Source: Escherichia coli O127:H6 str. E2348/69 (GTDB lineage Bacteria; Pseudomonadota; Gammaproteobacteria; Enterobacterales; Enterobacteriaceae). Taken from it: a stretch of 64,000 nucleotides of DNA. Below the pieces are notes generated by a model. It saw only the letters and a list, made by a program, of their open reading frames with translations. It did no database searches and was not told the origin of the DNA. Location of the stretch: assembly GCF_000026545.1 (NCBI RefSeq), contig NC_011601.1. One strand, 5' to 3'. A program made the position numbers and the translations under genes. Each line of letters starts with the position of its first letter. Position 1 is the stretch's first letter. Of the stretch, positions 48,792 to 63,579 are shown piece by piece.

Positions 48792-49367
48792 ATGCCCCTC
48801 TTACACCTGCTCCGCCAGAATCCGGTGATTGCTGCCGTTAAAGATAATGCCAGCCTGCAACTGGCAATCGACTCTGAATGCCAGTTTATTTCCGTGTTGT
48901 ACGGCAATATCTGCACCATTAGTAATATCGTTAAAAAGATTAAGAACGCCGGGAAATATGCTTTTATTCATGTTGATTTGCTGGAAGGCGCGTCAAATAA
49001 AGAAGTGGTGATTCAGTTTTTGAAACTGGTGACCGAGGCGGACGGAATTATCAGTACCAAAGCCTCAATGCTGAAAGCAGCAAGAGCGGAAGGTTTTTTC
49101 TGTATTCATCGACTGTTTATTGTTGATTCGATTTCGTTTCACAACATTGATAAGCAAGTTGCGCAATCGAATCCGGATTGTATTGAGATCCTGCCAGGCT
49201 GCATGCCTAAAGTGCTGGGCTGGGTGACGGACAAAATCCGCCAACCGCTGATTGCTGGCGGGCTGGTGTGCGATGAAGAAGATGCGCGTAATGCGATTAA
49301 CGCGGGTGTTGTGGCGCTTTCCACCACGAATACTGGGGTCTGGACGTTAGCGAAAAAATTGCTTTGA
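48792..49367 (+). CDS. ygcP: GlpP-family (glycerol-3-phosphate-responsive-type) antiterminator-like protein YgcP
   Basis: 191 aa, GlpP/G3P_antiterm family by sequence resemblance. Confidence 0.88.
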   Translation: MPLLHLLRQNPVIAAVKDNASLQLAIDSECQFISVLYGNICTISNIVKKIKNAGKYAFIHVDLLEGASNKEVVIQFLKLVTEADGIISTKASMLKAARAEGFFCIHRLFIVDSISFHNIDKQVAQSNPDCIEILPGCMPKVLGWVTDKIRQPLIAGGLVCDEEDARNAINAGVVALSTTNTGVWTLAKKLL

Positions 49368-49514: not shown

Positions 49515-50375
49515 TTATTGGCAATCTGCGTGAATGTTTGTCACCAGTGCCTCCAGCACCACTTTCCAGTCATCAATCACGCCAACATCTGCCTGTGAAA
49601 ATACCGCTGCACTGGCGTCATGATTAATCGCCACCACAAACTTGCTATTGCGTACGCCCGCCATTAACGCTGCTGCGCCGGAAGCGCCAACAACAATACA
49701 CACCTCAGGTGCCAGCAGATGTCCGGAAATACCAATCACTTTTTCGGCATCAACGCCACCGTTCATCACTCGTGCCCGACTGTAGCCCACTTCGGCTCCC
49801 ATCTTTTCTGCCAGCATAGCGATTTCCTGGTTATCTGCCTCTCCGCCCTGCCCCACCACCAGCACCCGTCTGGCCTCAGCTAATGGGTCACGGGTAACAT
49901 TTTTCAGGTTTTCTATGCTGATAAGCCAGTCTGGAAGCGCGCCGGGGACAATGTTCAGTTGCTGCATCCCAGAGGGCAACGTGGCGTTTTTATCTGCTCC
50001 CGCCTGACGTGCCAGCGAAAGGCATAGCGGGCGTTTTTCTGTTTGCAGCGTCGCCGTTAGCGCATTTCCCCAGTGGGATTTGCGCACGCTTACGGTTGGA
50101 ATATCTAACGAAGTCACCTGGCAGATGCTTGCACCATGTAAACGCCAGGCCAGCCGGGTCGACAGTTCATCGCCAAACGTTCCCGGCGGAAAGAGAACAA
50201 CGTCCGCAGGCGTTCGTTGCCACTGTTCCACCAGCACATCCAGCACCTGTTCCGCAACCATCGGCTGTGGTTCTATTTGCCAATGTGCCAGGGTACAACC
50301 GCTGAAATCCTGCGCCGCCAGCCAGCTCGCTATTGCGGCATGTTCCTGATTTATTGTCACAATTGCGATATTCAT
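49515..50375 (-). CDS. ygcQ: Electron transfer flavoprotein alpha-subunit homologue (FixB-like) YgcQ
   Basis: 286 aa, ETF alpha family. Confidence 0.9.
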   Translation of the reverse strand: MNIAIVTINQEHAAIASWLAAQDFSGCTLAHWQIEPQPMVAEQVLDVLVEQWQRTPADVVLFPPGTFGDELSTRLAWRLHGASICQVTSLDIPTVSVRKSHWGNALTATLQTEKRPLCLSLARQAGADKNATLPSGMQQLNIVPGALPDWLISIENLKNVTRDPLAEARRVLVVGQGGEADNQEIAMLAEKMGAEVGYSRARVMNGGVDAEKVIGISGHLLAPEVCIVVGASGAAALMAGVRNSKFVVAINHDASAAVFSQADVGVIDDWKVVLEALVTNIHADCQ

Positions 50376-51151
50376 GGCTGCATCCTTTGGCGTAAATAGT
50401 CCTGCCATAGCTTTTGCGCTTTTTCTGCTACCGTTTGCCCATCAATCAGCGCCGCTCTGCGTCGTTGCTCTGGCCTTGCCAGTTGCAGGCACTGTATCGC
50501 TGGCGCTTCCGCGGCAACAGTTTCGCGGGTAATCTCCGCTTTCCCCGCCGCCATTCGCTGGCGCATTCCCGGTACTGGCAAGGCCACTTCACCACACTGA
50601 CGCACGGCAATCACCGCAGGCAAGCGAACCCGGCAACAGCGTACCCCATGTTCAGTACGCTGTTCGAGGGTGATAAACGGTGCGTCGAGAGTAAAGCGCT
50701 CCACCTGGGTGAAGCAGGGCCAGACCAGCATTTCCGCCAGCAAAAATGGCGTTTGCCCATTCTGCCCTTCGCTGCTTTGGCAGCCAGTAATTATCAGATC
50801 CAGCGGATTCTGGTACTGCCATTCGGCAATATGGCGAGCGACAAATTCCGGCGCAAAGCACAGATCTGCCGCCGTCTCCAGCAATACAGCGTCCTCAAAC
50901 CCAAGAGCCATGAGATAGCGCAGCCAGTGCAACGCCCGTTCATCCCCCATGCTCAACGCGGTTAAAGACATCGGCGTACCGTTTTTTCTCTGCGCCAACA
51001 GCAGCGCGGCGGCAGCCTGTTCATCGGCACCGAGTAAACTTCGCAGAAGCGAAACATCCGGTCCGATATTACCCTGAGCCGCCGCCTGCCACTCTTTTTC
51101 CGCCAGCATTCCGGCATCCGGTTCGGCTTTAAACGCTAACAGAATGTTCAT
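50372..51151 (-). CDS. ygcR: Electron transfer flavoprotein beta-subunit homologue (FixA-like) YgcR
   Basis: 259 aa, ETF beta family; 4-nt overlap with ygcQ. Confidence 0.9.
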   Translation of the reverse strand: MNILLAFKAEPDAGMLAEKEWQAAAQGNIGPDVSLLRSLLGADEQAAAALLLAQRKNGTPMSLTALSMGDERALHWLRYLMALGFEDAVLLETAADLCFAPEFVARHIAEWQYQNPLDLIITGCQSSEGQNGQTPFLLAEMLVWPCFTQVERFTLDAPFITLEQRTEHGVRCCRVRLPAVIAVRQCGEVALPVPGMRQRMAAGKAEITRETVAAEAPAIQCLQLARPEQRRRAALIDGQTVAEKAQKLWQDYLRQRMQP

Positions 51152-52466
51152 TCGCACCTCCTACATTTCCCGCCGCCACCAGCGGGAGTGCTTTGGTTTC
51201 TGGTGCCCATAGCCAGGTCACAACAAAACCAACCAACAACACTGCCGCCAGGAGCAATAAGGTGACTTGCATTCCCCACTGCGCCAGCACCCACGGCAGC
51301 AGGCCCGTACTTACTGCCGCGCCCAACCGACTCATGGCGGTGGCAAAACCGACGCCCAGCGAGCGAATGTCAGTAGGAAAACTTTCCGCAGGCAAAATGC
51401 CCACCAGATTACTGACTGCCGAAATGGTGGTGCTGAAGAGAACAAAAAGCAGCAGCGTTAATGAACTGCCGGAAGGCAAACAGGCCATCACTACCAGCGT
51501 TGCCGCCAGCAGCAAAAAACTTCCCAGTAAAAATCTGCGATGTGCCAGCAGGTGCGTCAGAACTAATCCCAGCAGCGCGCCCACAATTAACAACGCATTA
51601 AGCATCAGGCTGGCAGTCAGCGCATCTTCCAGACCAATAGTTTGGGCGATGGTCGGCAGCCAGGTATAAATCACAAACCATGGGATTACGAGGCAGACAA
51701 AGAAGACGCTGTTAAACGCCGTGCGCCGCCAGTAGCGCGAAGAGAACAAGGTTTTGATGTGTTTATGGGTCGCCGTTGCCACTTCATCGCCCAGTAAAAC
51801 ATGCGGGCCAAAATAGCGATGAACGATAGCGTGAGCTTCTGCAAAACGCCCCTGGCGCAGTAGCCAGCGTGGCGATTCCGGCGTGCCCCAACGTAGCAGC
51901 GTAATCAGCAAAGCTGGTAACGCCGCTGATGCCAGCAGCCAGCGCCAGGCCTCCGGGCTTTCGGAAATAAAGTGATGTCCGGCAATACTTGCCAGCACAT
52001 AGCCTACGGTCCACACCACACTGAATGCGCCCAGCAAAATACCGCGATGGCGGCGCGGGGAAAATTCAGCCAGCAAGGTGTGACCGACTGAGTAATCGCC
52101 TCCCAGACCAATGCCGATCAAAATGCGCAATCCAATAAGATGCTCTGGCGTGGTGGCAAAAAATTGCAAGAACGAAGCGAGCGTAATCAGCATAAAACTG
52201 AAGGTGAAGATTTTTTGCCGCCCGATATGGTCGGAGATCCACCCCAAAACCAGGCTGCCAAGAAACAAACCAAGTAACGCCGAGCCGCCGATCATTCCCG
52301 CCATAAACGGCGTCAGTTGCATGGCGGGCGTAAGCTGAATAATGGCGTAACCAATGACGCCGAGAACATAACCGTCGGTCAGGTGTGCGCCGAAAGTGAG
52401 CGCAGCAATGCGGCAGTGAAAACGGTTAAGTGGTAAATCATCCATTCGCACCGGTGAAGTGTTCAT
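51129..52466 (-). CDS. ygcS: MFS sugar-porter-family transporter YgcS (445 aa)
   Basis: Polytopic MFS protein; start set at MNTSPVRMDD. Confidence 0.9.
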   Translation of the reverse strand: MNTSPVRMDDLPLNRFHCRIAALTFGAHLTDGYVLGVIGYAIIQLTPAMQLTPFMAGMIGGSALLGLFLGSLVLGWISDHIGRQKIFTFSFMLITLASFLQFFATTPEHLIGLRILIGIGLGGDYSVGHTLLAEFSPRRHRGILLGAFSVVWTVGYVLASIAGHHFISESPEAWRWLLASAALPALLITLLRWGTPESPRWLLRQGRFAEAHAIVHRYFGPHVLLGDEVATATHKHIKTLFSSRYWRRTAFNSVFFVCLVIPWFVIYTWLPTIAQTIGLEDALTASLMLNALLIVGALLGLVLTHLLAHRRFLLGSFLLLAATLVVMACLPSGSSLTLLLFVLFSTTISAVSNLVGILPAESFPTDIRSLGVGFATAMSRLGAAVSTGLLPWVLAQWGMQVTLLLLAAVLLVGFVVTWLWAPETKALPLVAAGNVGGANEHSVSV

Positions 52467-52559
52467 CTTTACCCCTTCATTGTCCGGTAATAAGAACGGC
52501 TTCTCGCCTGAGAAGCCGAAAAGGCAACGCCCTGTCATCGAGGAACGCTGCCTCACACA

Positions 52560-54014
52560 TTATTTTTCAATCGGATAGATAGTACCCGTATTCATAATGC
52601 CGTTAGGATCGAACTGTTTTTTCAGACCTTCCAGCAACGTCCACGCGCTGCCGTGTTCCAGTTTGCTCCAGTGAACGCGATGTTTACCGATACCGTGGTG
52701 GTGCACCATCGAACCGCCGAGACGAATGGTTTCTTCGCAGATGATTTTGTTGAGCGGATTGTGGTACTTGTCGATTTCCTCTTCCGGCTTACAGTCAACG
52801 ACGTTGTAGTCGTAGACGAAGTACATGTTGGTGCCGTTCTGATAGCTATGAGAGGAGTGACCGCCCAGCATGGTGATGTCGTCGGCGTGCGGGAACTCGG
52901 TACGAATACGGTTAATAACGCTTTCGTAGATTTCGTGAATGCAGCTCCAGCAGCCGGACACTTCAGTGGTAAAGCCCATGTTGCCGGTTTTGAGGATCTG
53001 CACACGTTCGGCAGCCACTTTATCCGGTCCCCAGTTCAGGTTGTTAAACCAGGTTTCGATCAGCTTGCTGTCCACGCGCTGGCACTGCGGGTAGCACGCC
53101 ACGATTTCAGCAATCCCTTCACCCGTCGCCTTCGCAATGCGAGGGTTACCTTCAGCCATAAAGATCAGCACGCATTTGCCGTCGGCAAAATGGGTGAAGT
53201 GTTGGGTGCCATCTTCAGCATCATACAAACGAGCAATCGACGGACGATACCCTTCCACCATGATTTCACGCAGGATGTTGAAGCCGGTTTTCATGTCTTC
53301 CAGCACATAGCCATAGAAGAGATTGTTTTCCGGCGTAAATTTGAAGATTTTCACTGTGACTTCAGTGATATAGCACAGTGCACCTTCGTTGCCGATGATG
53401 ATATGACGAATGTCCGGGCCAGCCGCGCGACGTGGCACGTTTTTAATGCGTGTGACGGTGCCATCTGCCAGCACCGCTTCCAGACCAACGACCATATCCT
53501 CGATTGCGCCGTAGAGTGTGGAAAACTGCCCGATACTGCGGGTCGCCACCAGGCCGCCCATCTGCGCCAGCGGCTTTGACTGCGGAGAATGCCCCGTGGT
53601 GTAACCTTTTTCACGCAGCGCGTTTTCCAGCACCTCCAGCGGAACGCCACATTGCGCCGTGGCCTGCATATTCTCAATATCAATATTAATGATTTGATTC
53701 ATGGCGGAGCCGTCGAGCACCACCGAGTTTTCCACAACGGTTTCCAGCCCACCTTCGGTGGCGGAAGCACCGGTACGTGGCACACCGTTAATTTTGTGCG
53801 CATTCATAAAATTCAGCACACGGGATACTTGTTCTGTGGAACCGAGTTTTACGACCGCTGCCGGAATTGGCAAAGTATAAATGCCATGAATATCCGGAAA
53901 TTTACGAAAACGGTCAATACTGTTCTTCTTTAATACTGTTTCATCGGTAATTACGCGATCTGCACCAACAATTTCCTTTAGCTGGTCGACAATCGCTACG
54001 CGAGATAAAGACAT
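52560..54014 (-). CDS. ygcU: FAD-linked oxidase (alkyl-DHAP-synthase / D-lactate dehydrogenase-like) YgcU
   Basis: 484 aa, FAD-binding PCMH domain. Confidence 0.9.
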   Translation of the reverse strand: MSLSRVAIVDQLKEIVGADRVITDETVLKKNSIDRFRKFPDIHGIYTLPIPAAVVKLGSTEQVSRVLNFMNAHKINGVPRTGASATEGGLETVVENSVVLDGSAMNQIINIDIENMQATAQCGVPLEVLENALREKGYTTGHSPQSKPLAQMGGLVATRSIGQFSTLYGAIEDMVVGLEAVLADGTVTRIKNVPRRAAGPDIRHIIIGNEGALCYITEVTVKIFKFTPENNLFYGYVLEDMKTGFNILREIMVEGYRPSIARLYDAEDGTQHFTHFADGKCVLIFMAEGNPRIAKATGEGIAEIVACYPQCQRVDSKLIETWFNNLNWGPDKVAAERVQILKTGNMGFTTEVSGCWSCIHEIYESVINRIRTEFPHADDITMLGGHSSHSYQNGTNMYFVYDYNVVDCKPEEEIDKYHNPLNKIICEETIRLGGSMVHHHGIGKHRVHWSKLEHGSAWTLLEGLKKQFDPNGIMNTGTIYPIEK

Positions 54015-54083
54015 AGTAATTCCTTCCTGATAATAAAAATGGAATAGTTATTAATAAGAGAAAACAGAAACCACCGTTATGAA

Positions 54084-54869
54084 TTAGCGCACTAAATAAC
54101 CGCCATCAACCACTAATAAATGTCCGTTGACATAATTCGATGCCGGACTTGCGAGGAATACGGCTGCACCCATTAAATCCTGAGTATCACCCCAACGGTT
54201 TGCCGGAATATGATCAAGAACACGCTGGTTAGTTTCTGGATTACTACGGGTCGCCAGCGTAATATCGGTTGCATAATAACCAGGAGCAATACCATTCACC
54301 TGAATATTATATTGGCCTAATTCATCGCAATAGGCTTTGGTGAATCCGGCAAGAGCATGTTTAGTGGCAGAATAAGCAGGTGACCATTGACCACCTAAGT
54401 AAGAGAACAATGAACAGATATTAATGATTTTACCGCTTTTCTGCGGGATCATAATTTTTGCCGCTTCGTAGCTTAACTCGAATGCGGCGGTCAGGTTCAC
54501 GTCAATCATCGGGTCCCAGTCGGCACGACCAAAGTCCAGCACCTTATTCAGCTTACAAATACCGGCATTGTTAACCAGAATATCTACGGTACCGAAGCGC
54601 TCACAGCAGGCAGCGATAATCTTCTGCGGCGCGCCTTCTGCGGTGATATCCACCTGCATAAAATCAACTTCGACACCCTGTTTTTCAATCATTTCCTTTG
54701 TTTCGCCGTTATCTTTGACGAAACTAGGAATAAAGACATTTGCGCCAGCTTTGGCCAACGCCATGGCAAATGCCTGGCCTAAACCGCTATTCCCGCCAGT
54801 AACAATTGCTGTTTTACCTTTCAGGGAGAAAAAATCCATTGAGAACGCATTGAGAGATTCGATTGACAT
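54084..54869 (-). CDS. ygcW: Short-chain dehydrogenase/reductase YgcW (261 aa)
   Basis: TGGNSGLG Rossmann motif; start at MSIES with a GGAG ribosome-binding site. The longer six-frame ORF runs through a terminator hairpin and was rejected. Confidence 0.9.
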   Translation of the reverse strand: MSIESLNAFSMDFFSLKGKTAIVTGGNSGLGQAFAMALAKAGANVFIPSFVKDNGETKEMIEKQGVEVDFMQVDITAEGAPQKIIAACCERFGTVDILVNNAGICKLNKVLDFGRADWDPMIDVNLTAAFELSYEAAKIMIPQKSGKIINICSLFSYLGGQWSPAYSATKHALAGFTKAYCDELGQYNIQVNGIAPGYYATDITLATRSNPETNQRVLDHIPANRWGDTQDLMGAAVFLASPASNYVNGHLLVVDGGYLVR

Positions 54870-54893
54870 AGTTAGCTCCAATTTCCGTAAGGC

Positions 54894-54940
54894 AAAAAAA
54901 AAGAAAGGTAACTTCCCCCGCGAGAGGGAAGTTACCTTTC
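54894..54940 (-). terminator. Strong intrinsic-terminator-like hairpin plus U9 tract in the ygcW leader (minus strand)
   Basis: 15-bp perfect stem gaaaggtaacttccc / gggaagttacctttc with 8-nt loop. The plus strand has A9 just 5' of the stem, so a minus-strand transcript has U9 immediately 3'. It lies about 25 nt upstream of the ygcW start codon. Confidence 0.6.
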
Positions 54941-54993
54941 TCATTATCTCTGGTAACTGGAGATAATTTTTAGCATAAGGACATAACTGCTAA

Positions 54994-55009
54994 TGTGATC
55001 GTAATCACA
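54994..55009. promoter_or_regulatory. Consensus CRP-binding site in the ygcW / yqcE divergent intergenic region
   Basis: TGTGAtcgtaaTCACA is a perfect match to the TGTGA-N6-TCACA CRP core. Confidence 0.6.
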
Positions 55010-55186
55010 GTGTGATGTTCGTATTGTCAAATAATTTAAAAAAGCAGAAGCGTGATTACTCTCACACAACACCTCTGCTTTCCATGTTATTTCTTATTGC
55101 AATTACTAGAGACCTGAGAAAAGTAATCCACCTGAAAGGGCGGCTTACTTTTCTCTTTTTTTGTCTATTACAAATGGGAATACGAT

Positions 55187-56464
55187 ATGCAACACAACTC
55201 ATATCGCCGTTGGATAACCCTCGCGATAATTAGTTTTAGCGGCGGCGTTAGTTTCGACCTGGCTTATTTACGTTATATTTATCAAATTCCCATGGCAAAA
55301 TTTATGGGATTCAGCAATACCGAGATAGGTTTAATAATGAGTACCTTTGGTATTGCGGCCATTATTTTCTATGCCCCTAGCGGCGTTATTGCCGATAAAT
55401 TTTCACATCGCAAAATGATTACTTCCGCGATGATCATTACCGGATTACTGGGTCTGTTAATGGCAACATATCCACCGCTGTGGGTAATGCTCTGTATTCA
55501 GGTCGCCTTTGCGATAACGACGATTTTAATGCTGTGGTCGGTGTCGATTAAAGCCGCATCGTTGCTGGGCGATCATAGCGAGCAAGGGAAAATTATGGGC
55601 TGGATGGAAGGGCTGCGCGGCGTCGGTGTAATGTCGCTGGCGGTGTTTACCATGTGGGTCTTTTCTCGCTTTGCACCGGATGACAGCGCCAGCCTGAAAA
55701 CGGTCATTATTATCTATAGTGTGGTTTACATTCTGCTGGGCATTTTGTGTTGGTTTTTTGTTAGCGATAACAACAATCTGCGCAGTGCCAATAACGAAGA
55801 AAAACAGTCATTCCAGCTTAGCGACATCCTGGCCGTTTTGCGCATCAGCACCACCTGGTATTGCAGCATGGTGATTTTTGGTGTCTTCACCATCTACGCC
55901 ATTCTGAGTTACTCCACCAACTATCTGACCGAAATGTACGGCATGTCGTTGGTGGCGGCGAGCTACATGGGGATTGTGATCAACAAAATCTTCCGCGCGC
56001 TGTGCGGCCCACTTGGCGGCATTATCACCACCTACAGTAAAGTGAAATCCCCTACCCGCGTGGTCCAAATCCTTTCCATCATCGGTTTGCTGGCGTTGAC
56101 AGCCCTGCTCGTCACGAACTCTAACCCGCAATCGGTCGCGATGGGGATTGGCCTGATTTTATTACTGGGATTCACCTGTTACGCCTCACGCGGGCTGTAC
56201 TGGGCCTGCCCTGGCGAAGCGAGAACACCGTCTTACATTATGGGCACCACGGTAGGTATTTGTTCGGTGATTGGATTTCTGCCGGATGTCTTCGTTTACC
56301 CGATTATCGGCTACTGGCAAGACACCCTGCCCGCTGCAGAAGCCTACCGCAACATGTGGCTAATGGGCATGGCGGCGCTTGGCATGGTGATCATCTTTAC
56401 CTTTTTGCTGTTCCAAAAAATTCGTACTGCTGATAGCGCCCCCGCAATGGCTAGCAGCAAGTAA
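55187..56464 (+). CDS. yqcE: MFS transporter YqcE
   Basis: 425-aa 12-TM MFS protein. Confidence 0.9.
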   Translation: MQHNSYRRWITLAIISFSGGVSFDLAYLRYIYQIPMAKFMGFSNTEIGLIMSTFGIAAIIFYAPSGVIADKFSHRKMITSAMIITGLLGLLMATYPPLWVMLCIQVAFAITTILMLWSVSIKAASLLGDHSEQGKIMGWMEGLRGVGVMSLAVFTMWVFSRFAPDDSASLKTVIIIYSVVYILLGILCWFFVSDNNNLRSANNEEKQSFQLSDILAVLRISTTWYCSMVIFGVFTIYAILSYSTNYLTEMYGMSLVAASYMGIVINKIFRALCGPLGGIITTYSKVKSPTRVVQILSIIGLLALTALLVTNSNPQSVAMGIGLILLLGFTCYASRGLYWACPGEARTPSYIMGTTVGICSVIGFLPDVFVYPIIGYWQDTLPAAEAYRNMWLMGMAALGMVIIFTFLLFQKIRTADSAPAMASSK

Positions 56465-56490
56465 GCCAGGAAAATTACAGGAGAAAAATC

Positions 56491-57969
56491 ATGTCGAAAA
56501 AATACATCATAGGGATTGATGGCGGAAGTCAGAGCACAAAAGTGGTGATGTACGATCTGGAAGGTAATGTGGTTTGCGAAGGCAAAGGCTTATTGCAGCC
56601 GATGCACACGCCAGATGCCGATACCGCAGAACATCCTGACGACGATTTATGGGCATCACTATGTTTTGCCAGTCACGATTTGATGAGCCAGTTTGCCGGA
56701 AATAAAGAAGATATTGTCGGCATTGGCCTGGGCTCAATCCGTTGCTGCCGTGCGTTATTGAAAGCCGATGGTACGCCAGCCGCGCCGTTGATTAGCTGGC
56801 AGGATGCACGCGTTACACGCCCTTACGAACACACTAATCCTGACGTGGCCTATGTCACCTCTTTTTCGGGTTATCTGACACATCGCTTAACCGGCGAGTT
56901 TAAAGACAATATCGCCAACTATTTTGGTCAGTGGCCGGTGGATTATAAGAGCTGGGCATGGAGCGAAAATGCCGCGGTAATGGAAAAGTTTAATATCCCC
57001 CGCCAGATGCTTTTTGACGTGCAAATGCCAGGCACTGTTCTTGGGCATATCACACCACAAGCTGCGCTGGCGACACATTTCCCGGCTGGGCTGCCGGTTG
57101 TTTGTACCACCAGTGATAAACCGGTAGAAGCTCTGGGAGCCGGGTTACTGGATGATGAAACGGCGGTAATTTCTCTTGGCACCTACATCGCGTTGATGAT
57201 GAACGGCAAAGCACTGCCGAAAGATCCGGTCGCGTACTGGCCGATTATGTCTTCTATTCCGCAAACATTGCTGTATGAAGGTTACGGTATTCGCAAAGGC
57301 ATGTGGACGGTGAGCTGGCTGCGCGACATGTTAGGCGAGTCGTTAATTCAGGATGCCAAAGCACAGGATCTTTCACCGGAAGATTTGCTCAACAAAAAAG
57401 CGTCTTGCGTGCCACCTGGTTGTAATGGGCTGATGACGGTGCTGGACTGGCTGACCAATCCGTGGGAACCGTACAAACGCGGAATTATGATCGGCTTTGA
57501 TTCCAGCATGGATTACGCATGGATATATCGTTCGATACTGGAAAGCGTGGCGCTGACGCTGAAGAACAATTACGACAATATGTGTAATGAAATGAATCAC
57601 TTTGCAAAGCATGTGATCATTACTGGCGGCGGTTCGAACAGCGATCTGTTTATGCAGATTTTTGCCGACGTGTTCAACCTTCCGGCACGCCGTAACGCCA
57701 TTAATGGTTGTGCAAGTCTGGGGGCAGCGATCAATACGGCGGTAGGTCTGGGGCTATACCCGGATTACGCAACGGCTGTCGACAAAATGGTTCGCGTGAA
57801 AGATATCTTTATGCCTGTTGAGAGCAACGCCAAACGCTACGACGCGATGAATAAAGGCATTTTCAAAGACCTAACCAAACACACTGATGTGATCCTGAAA
57901 AAATCGTATGAAGTGATGCATGGGGAATTGGGGAATGCGGATTCGATCCAGAGCTGGTCGAATGCGTAA
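56491..57969 (+). CDS. ygcE: FGGY-family carbohydrate kinase YgcE
   Basis: 492 aa, FGGY N- and C-domains. Confidence 0.9.
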   Translation: MSKKYIIGIDGGSQSTKVVMYDLEGNVVCEGKGLLQPMHTPDADTAEHPDDDLWASLCFASHDLMSQFAGNKEDIVGIGLGSIRCCRALLKADGTPAAPLISWQDARVTRPYEHTNPDVAYVTSFSGYLTHRLTGEFKDNIANYFGQWPVDYKSWAWSENAAVMEKFNIPRQMLFDVQMPGTVLGHITPQAALATHFPAGLPVVCTTSDKPVEALGAGLLDDETAVISLGTYIALMMNGKALPKDPVAYWPIMSSIPQTLLYEGYGIRKGMWTVSWLRDMLGESLIQDAKAQDLSPEDLLNKKASCVPPGCNGLMTVLDWLTNPWEPYKRGIMIGFDSSMDYAWIYRSILESVALTLKNNYDNMCNEMNHFAKHVIITGGGSNSDLFMQIFADVFNLPARRNAINGCASLGAAINTAVGLGLYPDYATAVDKMVRVKDIFMPVESNAKRYDAMNKGIFKDLTKHTDVILKKSYEVMHGELGNADSIQSWSNA

Positions 57970-58133: not shown

Positions 58134-59054
58134 ATGAGCGCAAGAGTATGGGTACTCGGTGATGCGGTTGTTGATTTATTACCCGAAAGCCAGGGGAGAC
58201 TACTACAGTGTCCTGGCGGGGCGCCTGCTAATGTTGCAGTCGGTATCGCAAGGCTGGGGGGGAAAAGTGCCTTTATTGGCAAAGTTGGCGATGATCCTTT
58301 CGGTCGCTTTATGTATCAGACACTGAGTACAGAAAATGTTGATACACGTTATATGTCTCTTGATCCTCAACAACGCACCTCAATTGTGGCTGTAGGACTT
58401 GATGAGCAAGGAGAAAGAAACTTTACCTTTATGGTACGCCCAAGTGCCGATCTTTTTTTACAACCTGATGACCTTCCTACATTTGGGCCGGGTGAATGGC
58501 TCCATCTTTGTTCCATTGCGCTCAGTGCAGAACCTTCCCGAAGTACCGCATTTCTGGCTATGGAGAAAATACGTCAGGCTGGCGGAAACATCAGTTTTGA
58601 TCCCAATATCCGCAGCGATCTCTGGCAGAGTGAAGCGCTATTAAGAAAATACCTTGATCGCGCGCTTTCGCTGGCGAATATCGCTAAATTGTCCGAAGAA
58701 GAGTTGCTATTCATCAGTGGCGAAAGCCAGGTTCAGCAAGGCGCATATTCATTAGTACAACGTTATTCGTTGACTTTATTGCTTATCACACAAGGAAAAA
58801 ATGGCGTACTTGTGTATTTTCAGGGGCAGTTTATCCACTATCCCGCCAAACCTGTTTCTGTCGTCGATACGACCGGGGCAGGAGATGCTTTTGTCGCTGG
58901 ATTACTTGCAGGTCTGGCTGATTCTGGAATACCAACAAATACCAGACAGCTTGAACGAATCATTGCACAAGCTCAGATTTGTGGTGCTCTGGCGACCACG
59001 GCTAAAGGCGCGATGACCGCCTTACCCCGACAACACGATCTCCCTTCACAATAG
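58134..59054 (+). CDS. scrK: Fructokinase (PfkB family) ScrK
   Basis: 306 aa; VLGDAVVDLLPE...LLQCPGGAPANVAVG...DTTGAGDAFVAGLLAGL is highly similar to enterobacterial ScrK. Confidence 0.85.
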   Translation: MSARVWVLGDAVVDLLPESQGRLLQCPGGAPANVAVGIARLGGKSAFIGKVGDDPFGRFMYQTLSTENVDTRYMSLDPQQRTSIVAVGLDEQGERNFTFMVRPSADLFLQPDDLPTFGPGEWLHLCSIALSAEPSRSTAFLAMEKIRQAGGNISFDPNIRSDLWQSEALLRKYLDRALSLANIAKLSEEELLFISGESQVQQGAYSLVQRYSLTLLLITQGKNGVLVYFQGQFIHYPAKPVSVVDTTGAGDAFVAGLLAGLADSGIPTNTRQLERIIAQAQICGALATTAKGAMTALPRQHDLPSQ

Positions 59055-59085
59055 TGATCCTGCTGTTGTATCTGTAACCCGATTT

Positions 59086-59101
59086 GTCGTGCCTGTCACA
59101 T
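59086..59101. promoter_or_regulatory. Candidate CRP site upstream of scrY
   Basis: TGTCGtgcctgTCACA has one perfect half-site and one imperfect half-site with correct spacing. Confidence 0.3.
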
Positions 59102-59104
59102 TTA

Positions 59105-59118
59105 CTAAATCGGTTTAG
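59105..59118. promoter_or_regulatory. Candidate ScrR operator (near-perfect palindrome) upstream of scrY
   Basis: ctaaatcggtttag, a 14-bp palindrome with one mismatch. Confidence 0.4.
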
Positions 59119-59163
59119 CGAAAATAATTGCTCTGGCTAAAAAGTCAGCTTTATTATCAACAC

Positions 59164-59177
59164 CTAAACCGGTTTAG
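59164..59177. promoter_or_regulatory. Candidate ScrR operator (perfect 14-bp palindrome) upstream of scrY
   Basis: ctaaaccggtttag is perfectly self-complementary and lies about 45 bp upstream of the scrY start. Confidence 0.45.
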
Positions 59178-59197
59178 CATTTTAGCAATTTTTATAA

Positions 59198-60739
<1,542 letters not shown>

Positions 60740-60747
60740 TACCAGAC

Positions 60748-60770
60748 AGCCTCACGGATGTGAGGCTTTT
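60748..60770 (+). terminator. Intercistronic hairpin plus T-tract between scrY and scrA (possible partial terminator / attenuator)
   Basis: agcctcac-ggat-gtgaggct followed by ttt. Confidence 0.4.
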
Positions 60771-60799
60771 ACTGAAATAACAATGAATTAGAGGGTTAT

Positions 60800-62170
60800 A
60801 TGGATTTCGATAAAATCGCCCAATCGTTGCTTCCTTTATTAGGTGGTAAGGAGAACATCGCCAGTGCAGCACATTGCGCCACTCGCCTACGGCTGGTACT
60901 GGTTGACGACACACTTGCCGATCAACATGCCATTGGCCAGATTGATGGAGTGAAAGGTTGTTTTCGTAATTCAGGGCAAATGCAAATCATCTTTGGCACC
61001 GGCGTGGTTAATAAAGTCTATGCTGCCTTTATTCAGGTTGCAGGTATTAGCGAATCCAGTAAAGCAGATACCGCTCGACTCGCCGCTCAAAAACTCAATC
61101 CTTTTCAGCGAATAGCACGGCTACTTTCTAATATTTTTGTCCCCATCATTCCAGCCATTGTTGCTTCTGGTTTATTAATGGGGCTCCTGGGAATGGTGAA
61201 AACATATGGCTGGGTGAATGCCGATAATGCGATTTATATCCTGCTGGATATGTGCAGTTCAGCCGCATTTATTATTCTCCCCATCCTTATTGGCTTTACT
61301 GCTGCTCGTGAATTTGGTGGAAATCCTTATCTTGGCGCGACATTAGGAGGGATTCTGACTCACCCGGCACTCACAAATGCCTGGGGCGTTGCTGCGGGAT
61401 TTCAGACAATGAACTTCTTCGGTTTTGAAATCGCCATGATTGGCTATCAGGGAACGGTTTTCCCCGTGCTTCTGGCAGTATGGTTTATGAGCATAGTGGA
61501 AAAACAGTTACGCAGGTTTATCCCTGATGCTCTGGATCTCATTCTGACGCCATTTCTGACTGTCGTCATTTCTGGCTTTATCGCTCTTTTGATTATTGGT
61601 CCGGCAGGACGAGCGTTAGGTGACGGTATCTCTTTCGTTCTCAGCACGCTGATTGCACACGCAGGCTGGTTAGCAGGGTTGTTATTCGGCGGGCTATATT
61701 CAGCGATTGTTATTACGGGTATTCATCATAGCTTCCACGCAATTGAAGCAGGACTTTTAGGTAACCCTGCAATCGGTGTTAATTTCCTGCTGCCTATTTG
61801 GGCAATGGCAAACGTTGCGCAAGGAGGTGCATGTCTGGCGGTATGGTTTAAAACCAAAGATACAAAAATTAAAGCAATCACCCTACCCTCGGCCTTTTCC
61901 GCAATGTTAGGGATTACTGAAGCCGCTATTTTTGGTATCAACCTTCGTTTTGTTAAACCTTTTATTGCGGCCTTAATTGGTGGCGCTGCCGGCGGTGCCT
62001 GGGTTGTCTCTGTTCACGTTTATATGACTGCCGTTGGTCTGACCGCAATACCCGGCATGGCAATCGTTCAGCCAACATCGTTGGTTAATTATATTATTGG
62101 AATGGTGATTGCTTTCGCTGTCGCTTTTAGCCTCTCTTTATTACTCAAATACAAAACGGACGAGGAGTAA
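60800..62170 (+). CDS. scrA: PTS sucrose-specific EIIBC component ScrA (456 aa)
   Basis: N-terminal EIIB cysteine motif (AAHCATRLR) followed by a glucose-family EIIC membrane domain. Confidence 0.9.
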   Translation: MDFDKIAQSLLPLLGGKENIASAAHCATRLRLVLVDDTLADQHAIGQIDGVKGCFRNSGQMQIIFGTGVVNKVYAAFIQVAGISESSKADTARLAAQKLNPFQRIARLLSNIFVPIIPAIVASGLLMGLLGMVKTYGWVNADNAIYILLDMCSSAAFIILPILIGFTAAREFGGNPYLGATLGGILTHPALTNAWGVAAGFQTMNFFGFEIAMIGYQGTVFPVLLAVWFMSIVEKQLRRFIPDALDLILTPFLTVVISGFIALLIIGPAGRALGDGISFVLSTLIAHAGWLAGLLFGGLYSAIVITGIHHSFHAIEAGLLGNPAIGVNFLLPIWAMANVAQGGACLAVWFKTKDTKIKAITLPSAFSAMLGITEAAIFGINLRFVKPFIAALIGGAAGGAWVVSVHVYMTAVGLTAIPGMAIVQPTSLVNYIIGMVIAFAVAFSLSLLLKYKTDEE

Positions 62171-63579
62171 TGTCGATGCCTTCACAAATGCCCGCGATTT
62201 TACAGGCAGTGATGAAAGGTCAGTCCAAAGCACTGGCAGATGCCCACTATCCTTGTTGGCATCTCGCTCCAGTCACCGGACTAATGAACGATCCAAATGG
62301 CTTTTGTTGGTCTGGAGGCCGCTATCATCTGTTTTATCAATGGAATCCACTGGCTTGTGATCATAAGTACAAATGTTGGGGGCACTGGAGTTCGACGGAT
62401 TTATTGCACTGGCAGCATGAACCATTAGCGCTAATGCCCGATAAAGAGTACGACCGTAATGGTTGTTACTCAGGAAGCGCGGTTAATAATCAGGGCGTTC
62501 TCACACTTTGCTATACCGGTAATGTTAAGTTTGATGATGGCAGCAGAACGGCATGGCAATGCCTGGCCACCGAAAATAACCAGGGCGGGTTTGATAAACT
62601 AGGCCCTGTCATACCGTTACCTGATGGTTACACCGGACATGTTCGTGATCCAAAAGTCTGGAAGCACAACAGCCAATGGTACATGGTGCTTGGCGCGCAA
62701 GATAAAGAGAAACGGGGGAAAGTGCTGCTGTATTCCTCTGTCGATCTCTATACCTGGTCTTTTCATGGAGAAATTGCTGGTAACGGTCTGAATGAAATAG
62801 ATAACGCAGGATACATGTGGGAATGTCCTGATCTTTTCGCCCTTGATGGTGAATACATTCTCCTCTGTTGCCCCCAGGGAATGGTGCGCGAACATGAGCG
62901 CTATCTGAATACTTATCCCTGCGCCTGGCTACATGGACAGTTTGATTACGAGACAGGCAAATTTACGCATGGCGCTTTCTCAGAGCTGGATGCGGGATTT
63001 GAATTCTATGCACCACAGACGATGGAAGCCCCGGACGGGCGACGATTGCTGGTCGGCTGGATGGGGGTTCCTGATGGCGAAGAGATGTTGCAGCCAACCA
63101 GAAAGCATCATTGGCAGCATCAAATGACCTGTTTTCGCGAACTCTCATTCCAGAAGGGAAAATTGTTTCAGATGCCAATCAGGGAACTCGCGCAACTGCG
63201 TGAAGCTGAACACTTCTGGCAAGGAAAAGCGGATCATGCGCCGCATGTCGAAATTGAACGCCTGGAAATGGACATCATTCCGTCGGGTGAGCTGTATCTG
63301 AATTTTGGCAATGCGCTGGCACTGCATCTTAATGACGATGGTATTCAACTACAGAGGAGAAGCCTTGCAGGGCAAGAGAAACTAACTCGTTACTGGCGAG
63401 GAAGCGTAACGTCACTGAAGATTCTCTGTGACAGTTCCAGCGTAGAGATATTCATCAATAATGGTGAAGGTGTAATGAGTAATCGTTATTTTCCCCATCA
63501 TCCAGCTTCGCTGATATTACAGGGTGAGTCTGACGTCACGTTACGCTACTGGTCGCTACGCGCCTGCATGGTAGAATGA
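62170..63579 (+). CDS. scrB: Sucrose-6-phosphate hydrolase (GH32) ScrB
   Basis: 469-aa ORF with GH32 motifs (NDPNG, RDPKV, EC); start overlaps the scrA stop. Confidence 0.9.

Follow-up and report, generated by a model that had tools for sequence, protein, structure and literature searches.

Twin leaders of the divergent ygcW and yqcE genes of Escherichia coli as candidate targets of antitermination by the GlpP-type protein YgcP

Results

Gene content of the ygc locus

The stretch of DNA analyzed here (64,000 nucleotides of Escherichia coli O127:H6 str. E2348/69, contig NC_011601.1; hereafter the window) contains the divergent genes ygcW and yqcE, separated by a spacer of 317 bp. Each half of this spacer holds a promoter, a short leader and an intrinsic terminator, and the two leaders probably act as attenuators under the control of YgcP, the product of a nearby gene. 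According to the RefSeq annotation, queD, ygcN, ygcO and ygcP are located on the plus strand, ygcQ, ygcR, ygcS, ygcU and ygcW on the minus strand, and yqcE and ygcE again on the plus strand, where they are followed in E2348/69 by a sucrose-utilization island. The ygcW gene starts at position 54869 (minus strand) and yqcE at position 55187 (plus strand), and no RefSeq feature is annotated in the leader region between them.

The genes ygcW, ygcU, ygcS, ygcR and ygcQ are annotated as a short-chain dehydrogenase/reductase (SDR) oxidoreductase, a flavin adenine dinucleotide (FAD)-dependent oxidoreductase, a major facilitator superfamily (MFS) transporter, and the beta and alpha subunits of an electron-transfer flavoprotein (ETF), respectively. 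Neither glpK, glpF or glpD nor a regulator linked to the phosphotransferase system (PTS) is annotated in the ygc cluster. The cluster comprises about ten y-genes and is present in ~93% of complete E. coli genomes. A literature search on the function of ygcE, ygcU, ygcS, ygcN, ygcQ and ygcR returned nothing relevant. The features of the locus are collected in Table 1.

Table 1. Coordinates in the window of the regulatory features and of the genes presumed to be regulated
Feature	Position	Strand	Basis and remarks
ygcP, proposed antiterminator	48792..49367	plus	PF04309 G3P_antiterm, full length, E = 2.7e-62
ygcW-ygcU-ygcS-ygcR-ygcQ, presumed regulated operon	49515..54869	minus	annotation; short or overlapping gene junctions; operon status inferred
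ygcW Shine-Dalgarno GGAG and ATG	54879-54876; 54869-54867	minus	sequence, annotation
ygcW leader transcript = ecr2774	54889..54962	minus	5' CUCCAGUUACC ... U9 GCCUU 3'; PMC4681348 coordinates mapped
U9 tract of the ygcW leader terminator	54894..54902	minus	sequence
ygcW intrinsic-terminator hairpin	54903..54942	minus	sequence; fold; published Term-seq 3' end in the same 5' UTR
ygcW box2 GGUAACU, in the terminator 5' arm, alternative partner of box1	54930..54936	minus	sequence, fold
ygcW GAG loop AGAGAUAAUGAGAAA	54937..54951	minus	GAG at 54950-54948 and 54942-54940; proposed YgcP recognition element
ygcW box1 AGUUACC, pairs with box2	54952..54958	minus	sequence, nascent fold, covariation
Extended -10 of the ygcW promoter, TG-c-TAAAAA	54967..54975	minus	sequence; conserved spacing to box1
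CRP site 1 TGTGATTACGATCACA, perfect core	54993..55008		center 55000.5; ~-40.5 from the ygcW-leader start
CRP site 2 CGTGATTACTCTCACA, 9/10 core positions	55051..55066		center 55058.5; -41.5/-42.5 from the yqcE-leader start; predicted
Extended -10 of the yqcE promoter, TG-t-TATTTC (K-12: TATTTA)	55085..55093	plus	sequence; conserved spacing to box1
yqcE leader transcript = ecr2775	55101..55163	plus	PMC4681348 coordinates mapped; northern
yqcE box1 AUUACU; loop AGAGACCUGAGAAA; box2 AGUAAU	55102-55107; 55108-55121; 55122-55127	plus	alignment, fold
yqcE leader terminator	55116..55162	plus	GAGAAAAGUAA ... UUACUUUUCUC (55116-55155) and U7 (55156-55162)
yqcE-ygcE, presumed regulated operon	55187..57969	plus	annotated MFS transporter and FGGY kinase; operon status inferred

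Terminator hairpins of the twin leaders

On the minus strand, the ygcW leader forms a hairpin with 15 perfect base pairs between the 5' arm GAAAGGTAACTTCCC (54940-54926) and the 3' arm GGGAAGTTACCTTTC (54917-54903), which is extendable to 19 pairs over 54942-54901 if the upper extension and G-U pairing are included. The last U of the adjoining U9 tract is 24 nt away from the ygcW ATG. This hairpin was the top-ranked terminator-like site within 14 kb in a consensus scan, while the 100-nt ygcW leader folds at -41.8 kcal/mol (z = -6.4), and none of 200 shuffled sequences was as stable. The CRP core TGTGAttacgaTCACA is found at 55008-54993 on the minus strand (the plus strand reads TGTGAtcgtaaTCACA), and the center of this site lies 58 bp upstream of the hairpin base. 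An earlier reading of the same DNA, made without database searches (the sequence-only reading), had described a 15-bp stem with U9 about 25 nt before the ygcW start and a perfect CRP core some 55-60 bp further upstream; its coordinates and distances for both elements proved accurate. It had missed the twin leader of yqcE with its own CRP-like site, the alternative pairing inside the leaders, and a previous report of the leader RNAs as small RNAs (sRNAs), all of which are described below.

The yqcE leader on the plus strand ends with a stem formed by GAGAAAAGTAA and TTACTTTTCTC, separated by 18 nt and followed by T7, again 24 nt ahead of the start codon. A near gap-free alignment was obtained between the 147 nt upstream of ygcW (minus strand) and the 145 nt upstream of yqcE (plus strand). 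The blocks common to both halves of the spacer correspond to the CRP site (GTGATTAC..TCACA), the extended -10 element (ATG.TA) and a box A.TTAC., with further common blocks AGAGA, TGAGAAA.GTAA and TTAC.TTTCT.TTTTTTTG. Since the two halves align as paralogous leaders on opposite strands, the spacer is, as judged from this alignment, an inverted duplication of one promoter-leader cassette.

CRP sites and promoters

The extended -10 element of ygcW predicts a transcription start at ~54960 and that of yqcE at 55100, while the published RNA 5' ends map to 54962 and 55101, respectively. The ygcW promoter has no good -35 element, as would be expected of a class II CRP promoter, in which a CRP site centered near -41.5 replaces the -35 element. 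The positions of both CRP sites agree with this arrangement. By architecture, both promoters thus appear to be of the class II CRP-dependent type, and their activity would depend on cAMP-CRP. Site 1 was already predicted by PhyloScan in 2007. CRP occupies it in vivo, as seen from a peak of chromatin immunoprecipitation sequencing in enterotoxigenic E. coli (PMC4287617), and binds it in vitro with an estimated Kd of ~1.7 nM according to footprint-seq (PMC12871828), so that for this site the CRP core of the sequence-only reading corresponds to a published binding site.

The same promoter layout was found across the enterobacterial leaders. Essentially each of ~100 leaders has its own CRP-like site matching 8-10 of the ten core positions and centered 42.5-44.5 nt upstream of the leader segment termed box1; this distance is 41.5-43.5 nt in the yqcE-type leaders. 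A TGnTA motif also occurs in every one of the ~100 leaders, and the longer form TGnTAnnn(T/A) is kept at a constant distance from box1.

Published transcripts and 3' ends

Both leaders correspond to RNA molecules that have been catalogued in E. coli MG1655. Romero et al. 2014 (PMC4681348) described the short RNAs ecr2774 (73 nt, ygcW strand) and ecr2775 (63 nt, yqcE strand), which were reported as candidate novel sRNAs (Table S5 therein), and ecr2775 was seen by northern blot in both LB and M9-glucose (Fig. 7 therein). Their coordinates were shifted by +1978 between the genome versions, and this offset was checked on CsrB and GcvB. When mapped onto the K-12 sequence, ecr2774 reads CTCCAGTTACC...T9GCCTT and ecr2775 reads AATTACTAGAG...T8G. 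Because these RNAs begin at box1 or 4 nt ahead of it and extend past the U tract, transcription starts upstream of the hairpins. For ygcW in particular, ecr2774 begins 4 nt before box1; a start downstream of the hairpin, which the sequence-only reading had named as a refuting observation, is thus not what the published data show.

The Term-seq study of Adams et al. 2021 (PMC7815308) placed 3' ends at -38 of ygcW (40,640 reads) and at -36 of yqcE. The Rho scores of these ends are 0.50 and 0.61, respectively, and neither was called a Rho termination region, while the intrinsic terminator scores reach 15.8 and 11.4 at a threshold of 3. For neither of these 5'-untranslated region (5'-UTR) 3' ends is a known regulatory element noted in that work. 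The proposal of the sequence-only reading that transcription stops in the ygcW leader is therefore borne out by a published Rho-independent 3' end in this 5' UTR. Its alternative, an unrecognized sRNA ending at the terminator, held in one respect, namely that a short RNA exists, but this RNA has been a candidate sRNA since 2014. The ecr RNAs and the Term-seq 3' ends represent the same molecules as the ygcW and yqcE leaders described here, although the two catalogues assign them no function or regulator and describe no conserved motif.

Alternative pairing in the leader RNAs

The leaders share a common order of segments: box1, a loop with two GAG triplets, box2, and the rest of the terminator. 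The loop between box1 and box2 is 14-15 nt long, its GAG triplets are spaced by 4-5 nt, and the second GAG constitutes the base of the terminator 5' arm. Because box2 and the second GAG also belong to this arm, the box1:box2 hairpin and the terminator are mutually exclusive. The sequence-only reading had suggested folding the leader in silico for alternative antiterminator structures, and the box1:box2 hairpin was what such folding revealed, being the minimum-energy fold of the nascent RNA at -6.7 kcal/mol for ygcW and -1.4 to -3.2 kcal/mol for yqcE. The terminators, in comparison, are worth -34 and -20.5 kcal/mol, respectively. Protein-dependent antiterminators act on the same layout, in which a weak hairpin on the 5' side has one strand in common with a much stronger terminator, and they have to stabilize the weaker of the two. 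Box1 was paired in the nascent fold of 80 out of 96 leaders.

Covariation and invariance were counted over 68 distinct leaders that had been aligned. No variation was seen in either GAG triplet in any of the 68, nor in the A-run and the core of box1. Standard base pairs make up 95.6% of the box1:box2 cells, compared to 15-52% in slid controls, and three of the seven box1:box2 pairs show compensatory changes. The two-sided changes include G-C to A-U in the yqcE type of Escherichia, U-A to C-G in the ygcW type, and A-U to G-C in a single locus (L028). The terminator is paired at 91.8% across the same leaders. At one alignment position, C35, the two structures compete directly: the terminator pair C35:G62 is broken in 47 of the 68 leaders, while the competing pair G6:C35 is broken in none. 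Since the former is often broken and the latter never, selection at this position, as far as these counts tell, favors the 5' hairpin over the terminator.

An additional pairing was noticed in the ygcW leader. Its first 8 nt, CUCCAGUU (54962-54955), are complementary to AAUUGGAG (54883-54876), which includes the ygcW Shine-Dalgarno sequence, and when the 100-nt leader is folded to its energy minimum, this helix encloses the terminator. Citrobacter shows a comparable pairing, AUUCC/GGAAU, which was not seen in Serratia. Such a helix could add translational control to the read-through transcripts, if the modeled fold forms.

Conservation of the leader element and co-occurrence with ygcP

Homologs of YgcP were searched in one genome per species, resulting in 64 species-level loci. 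In all loci of sufficient length, ygcP is found alongside homologs of ygcW, ygcU, yqcE and ygcE, in several gene orders. The module extends beyond Enterobacterales to Listeria sensu lato, Bacillus and Thalassobacillus and is thus found in two phyla. In the Firmicutes (loci L057-L064), the YgcW and YgcU proteins are 70-78% and 61-67% identical to those of E. coli, respectively. The leader element of ~69 nt is kept in Enterobacterales and some Bacilli, always within the ygcP/ygcW/ygcU/ygcE module, and precedes homologs of ygcW, yqcE or ygcU in every species regardless of gene order. Its consensus is CAGTTACY-AGAGAnnATGAGAAA-RGTAACTTCCC-loop-GGGAAGYTRCYTTTCTC-T8. Because the identity of YgcW and YgcU is high and the leader element travels with the genes, the comparison points to a transfer of the whole ygc module between the phyla, with its putative regulator and RNA switch included. 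In Listeria, ygcP itself is located inside the operon that YgcP would regulate.

A covariance model (R1) was built from the alignment of 68 leaders. Only two matches were found in the 64-kb window, at 54894-54962 (83.1 bits) and 55097-55162 (73 bits), and two strong matches (52-84 bits) are present in nearly all enterobacterial loci that hold both ygcW and yqcE. Outside Enterobacterales, the model matched with 58 bits in front of ygcW in Thalassobacillus, and with 21-27 bits in Listeria and Bacillus, where the matches lie directly behind sigma-A-type promoters and ahead of the first operon gene. An exception was noted in Limnobaculum eriocheiris (L033, 13855-13986), which has a spacer of ~130 nt with only one hairpin, a palindrome placed between A9 and T9. 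This hairpin matches the model on both strands, and no box1, CRP site or promoter is evident; the spacer resembles twin leaders that have collapsed or degenerated.

The converse association was addressed by a metagenome scan for the box1-GAG-GAG-box2 pattern, which returned 80 loci. All 56 pattern loci with a T-run are located beside homologs of ygcW, yqcE or ygcU, and ygcP was found in each of the 24 T-run loci that reach far enough. None of the other 24 pattern loci, which have no T-run, contains a ygc gene.

YgcP and the leaders of glpP-linked operons

YgcP matches the PF04309 family over its full length (Table 1), in agreement with the sequence-only reading, which had named it a homolog of GlpP-type antiterminators. 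Its relatives of known structure, 3KTS and 1VKF, are described in the Protein Data Bank (PDB) as glycerol uptake operon antiterminator proteins. In Bacillus subtilis, GlpP with glycerol-3-phosphate (G3P) overcomes terminators in the glpD, glpFK and glpTQ leaders (PMC10573289, PMC9604022).

The tandem-GAG pattern was defined on the ygc leaders and then tested on other leaders. For this comparison, canonical-type leaders were taken from Clostridia and Priestia megaterium loci with a PF04309 gene beside glycerol genes; one locus (P0131) was left out because its contig is too short. The sampled operons of Clostridia have the order glpK-glpP-(glpA-like, Pyr_redox, DUF1667), and the P. megaterium locus has the layout of B. 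subtilis, glpP-glpFK-glpD. In most of the canonical glpP-linked leaders, GAG-N4-5-GAG directly precedes the terminator, and the second GAG adjoins the base of the 5' arm or forms part of it. For instance, the P. megaterium glpD leader reads UUGGUU-GGAGAAUCGGAGAG-ACCA... with the terminator GAGAGACCAUG...UGGUCUCUC-U7, the glpFK leader of the same species reads ACGGAGAAUAGGAGAUCCAC, and the leader of locus L192 reads CUGCU-AGAGAGAUGAGAGUAU-AGCGG. The tandem GAG was found in five of seven canonical-type leaders versus 0.8% of background windows, and in seven of nine when the two P. megaterium leaders are counted. Among 100 terminator-like hairpins from 16 Firmicute loci, it is present in 13, all of them PF04309-linked leaders, and in none of the remaining 87. 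Together with the co-occurrence and the covariance-model matches, this signature strengthens the link between YgcP and the ygc leaders that the sequence-only reading had drawn from gene proximity and homology.

Two further PF04309 loci deserve a mention. In L195 (528-720), a leader with GUGAGAGUGAGAGAA and a terminator lies ahead of a PF04309 gene, which is followed by genes for a HAD hydrolase, a sulfatase/phosphodiesterase and a solute-binding protein. The reach of PF04309 regulators thus seems to extend to pathways other than those of glycerol and the ygc module. The GlpP homolog of Listeria monocytogenes (L197, 7001-7549), which is the 3KTS protein or near-identical to it, lies between mutL and pflB. 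No glycerol genes adjoin it and no tandem-GAG leader follows it, so its targets must be elsewhere, and the locus is uninformative for this comparison.

Sucrose-utilization island

The island past ygcE in E2348/69 (58134-63579 and onward) encodes a kinase, a carbohydrate porin, a sucrose PTS IIBC component, a sucrose-6-phosphate hydrolase and a LacI-family regulator. In K-12 the island is presumably absent, with queE located directly after ygcE.

Discussion

Proposed mechanism

We consider it probable that class II CRP promoters feed a YgcP-controlled leader attenuator at both ends of the ygcW-yqcE spacer. Each copy of the cassette would consist of a class II CRP promoter with its site near -41 and an extended -10 element, a leader of ~62-74 nt, and a terminator ~24 nt before the start codon. 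cAMP-CRP would activate both promoters, and RNA polymerase would then transcribe box1, the GAG loop and box2. In the absence of active YgcP, box1 would lose its partner to the 3' arm, and the 62-74-nt leader observed as ecr2774 or ecr2775 would be released at the terminator. Effector-loaded YgcP would bind the GAG-loop hairpin on the nascent RNA, and the bound hairpin would keep the second GAG and box2 from the 3' arm, resulting in read-through into ygcW-ygcU-ygcS-ygcR-ygcQ and yqcE-ygcE.

By analogy with G3P for GlpP, the effector would most plausibly be a phosphorylated product of the FGGY kinase YgcE. The ygc module always includes this kinase along with the FAD oxidase and its electron-transfer flavoprotein system. 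Since the regulated genes are not glycerol genes, the effector of YgcP is probably not G3P itself, and the presence of a separate FGGY kinase in a cluster devoid of glpK, glpF and glpD suggests a different phosphorylated compound.

Alternative explanations

The two RNAs might primarily be independent trans-acting sRNAs, with the hairpins being just their terminators and the downstream genes controlled elsewhere. Their report as candidate sRNAs, the northern signal of ecr2775 under two growth conditions and the abundance of the ygcW 3' end in Term-seq would all fit this explanation, but we regard it as unlikely. The transcripts end 24 nt before the start codon, which leaves no room for another promoter, and the element precedes homologs of ygcW, yqcE or ygcU at this fixed distance in every gene order. 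Moreover, the conserved parts amount to a small hairpin and a terminator, with no obvious seed region. A function as sRNA is nevertheless compatible with attenuation, because the terminated leaders could have a second role.

It is quite improbable that the leaders are protein-independent riboswitches, with a metabolite bound by the box1-loop-box2 hairpin itself and no part played by YgcP. Conserved sequence beside a terminator with an alternative pairing is indeed what a riboswitch would offer, but no credible match of the spacer to Rfam 15 was found even at E = 10 (the best hit scored 24 bits against a gathering score of 83), and the conserved unpaired part, with ~15 nt in one hairpin, would make a small aptamer. 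In addition, a PF04309 gene always accompanies the element, the family member of B. subtilis acts on leader RNA, and the tandem GAG tracks PF04309 genes across operons of different metabolism.

Ribosome-mediated attenuation, or an N-terminally extended ygcW whose translation melts the terminator, was considered because the longest listed ygcW open reading frame (54084..54944) starts inside the GAG loop at an ATG (54944) that is in frame with the annotated start and preceded by AGAGA at 4-5 nt, so that the frame runs through the hairpin. We hold this to be very improbable. The AUG is found in only 36 of the 68 distinct leaders, the E. coli yqcE leader has CUG instead, and a stop codon breaks the corresponding frame in Citrobacter, while the RefSeq start of ygcW at 54869 has a good GGAG. 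The upstream reading frame was rejected as the AUG is not conserved.

That the element is purely structural and constitutive, for example an insulator, an RNA-stability hairpin or a palindrome of the repetitive extragenic palindromic (REP) type under no conditional control, has hardly any chance of being correct, since a terminator of -34 kcal/mol with U9 would silence a conserved five-gene operon, conservation extends beyond the hairpin to box1 and the GAG loop, and a dispersed REP-like repeat is excluded by copy number (a median of two and at most four places per E. coli genome, all chromosomal, and the two covariance-model matches in the window).

Relation to known antitermination systems

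The proposed YgcP switch resembles the GlpP system in the protein family, in the intrinsic terminator placed between promoter and start codon, and in the tandem GAG-N4-5-GAG found in most of the glpP-linked leaders sampled. It differs in several respects. The host is a Gram-negative enteric bacterium, and the promoters would be dependent on CRP rather than CcpA. The controlled genes encode an SDR protein, an FAD oxidase, ETF, an FGGY kinase and MFS transporters instead of glycerol functions; the glp regulon of E. coli itself is controlled by the repressor GlpR. Finally, the ygc system has two divergent paralogous leaders with a clear box1:box2 helix of 6-8 bp, whereas this helix is not significant in Bacillus-type leaders.

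With the BglG/SacY/LicT family, which in E. coli acts on the bgl operon, the ygc leaders share by analogy a weak 5' hairpin that overlaps the 5' arm of a strong terminator and would need a bound protein to prevail. In contrast, those regulators are CAT-PRD proteins and not members of PF04309, and the ygc leaders are found without a ribonucleic antiterminator (RAT) consensus, an Rfam match or a PTS-linked regulator. TRAP recognizes (G/U)AG repeats and promotes termination. For HutP, XAG sites are mentioned in PMC2425495. The way in which these two proteins recognize spaced NAG triplets in leader RNA resembles the proposed recognition by YgcP of GAG triplets next to a terminator, but the ygc leaders have only two triplets, the protein folds are different, and TRAP promotes termination rather than preventing it.

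Weighing of the evidence

Several points weigh against control by YgcP or limit its comparison with GlpP. The searched literature contains no report of YgcP binding RNA or affecting ygcW or yqcE. The Term-seq 3' ends, at 54907 (minus) and 55152 (plus), sit in the 3' arms, 13 and 10 nt short of the last U, and not in the U tracts that the RNA-seq boundaries include; this offset may result from exonucleases that trim the A-U-rich lower stems. Only about three independent events underlie the compensatory changes, so that the covariation is supportive and not overwhelming. The co-occurrence in the 64 loci arises by construction, because these loci were found through YgcP; only the metagenome scan tests the converse, and its matches are mostly from Enterobacterales.

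The comparison with canonical leaders is limited in three ways. The glpP-glpFK-glpD locus of P. megaterium was used in place of the leaders of B. subtilis. The covariance model gives canonical glp leaders 8-17 bits, compared to up to 24 bits for unrelated hairpins, and because these scores are no better than those of unrelated terminators, homology of the ygc RNA to canonical GlpP targets is not claimed. Also, neither in the glpD and glpFK leaders of P. megaterium nor in L065 and L195 does the box helix exceed chance expectation. Accordingly, what the ygc and canonical glpP-linked leaders share is, as far as can be told from their sequences, a short signature and an architecture only. As a universal feature of GlpP leaders, the box1:box2 helix was dismissed, being unsupported outside the ygc type and a few others.

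Significance

Of the individual components, the CRP site, both short RNAs and the 3' ends in the 5' UTRs were already published or annotated, as was the name of YgcP, which is based on homology. In the literature searched, no statement was found that links the CRP site, the short RNAs, the 3' ends and YgcP with each other. Nor did that search return any mention of the twin architecture, of the box1/tandem-GAG/box2 element conserved in two phyla, or of a tandem-GAG signature common to the ygc and the canonical glpP-linked leaders. If YgcP acts as proposed, it would represent GlpP-type leader antitermination in an unexpected host and pathway, a switch for a sugar-type operon in E. coli.

To our knowledge, a general RNA recognition element of PF04309 antiterminators has not been defined so far. 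A broader interpretation, which we offer tentatively and with slightly more doubt than confidence, is that the box1/tandem-GAG/box2 hairpin is such an element, and that the module moved between Firmicutes and Enterobacterales together with its protein and its switch. In E. coli it would then have been rewired to CRP and mirror-duplicated, and the compound sensed by YgcP would be a polyol phosphate or sugar phosphate produced by YgcE, not G3P.

The YgcP attenuator model provides a concrete and testable regulatory mechanism, along with a regulator, for a conserved E. coli cluster of about ten y-genes, and in the published MG1655 data it accounts for two transcripts and two Term-seq 3' ends that had so far been orphans. 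The two GAG triplets at the foot of the leader terminator constitute a candidate RNA signature of the GlpP family, which may be used for finding targets of PF04309 proteins and for designing binding experiments. The leader and its protein may also serve as a compact, portable terminator/antiterminator pair for engineering, as was proposed for GlpP and PglpD in B. subtilis (PMC9604022). If the broader interpretation holds as well, YgcP would represent a second class of protein-dependent catabolic antitermination in E. coli besides BglG.

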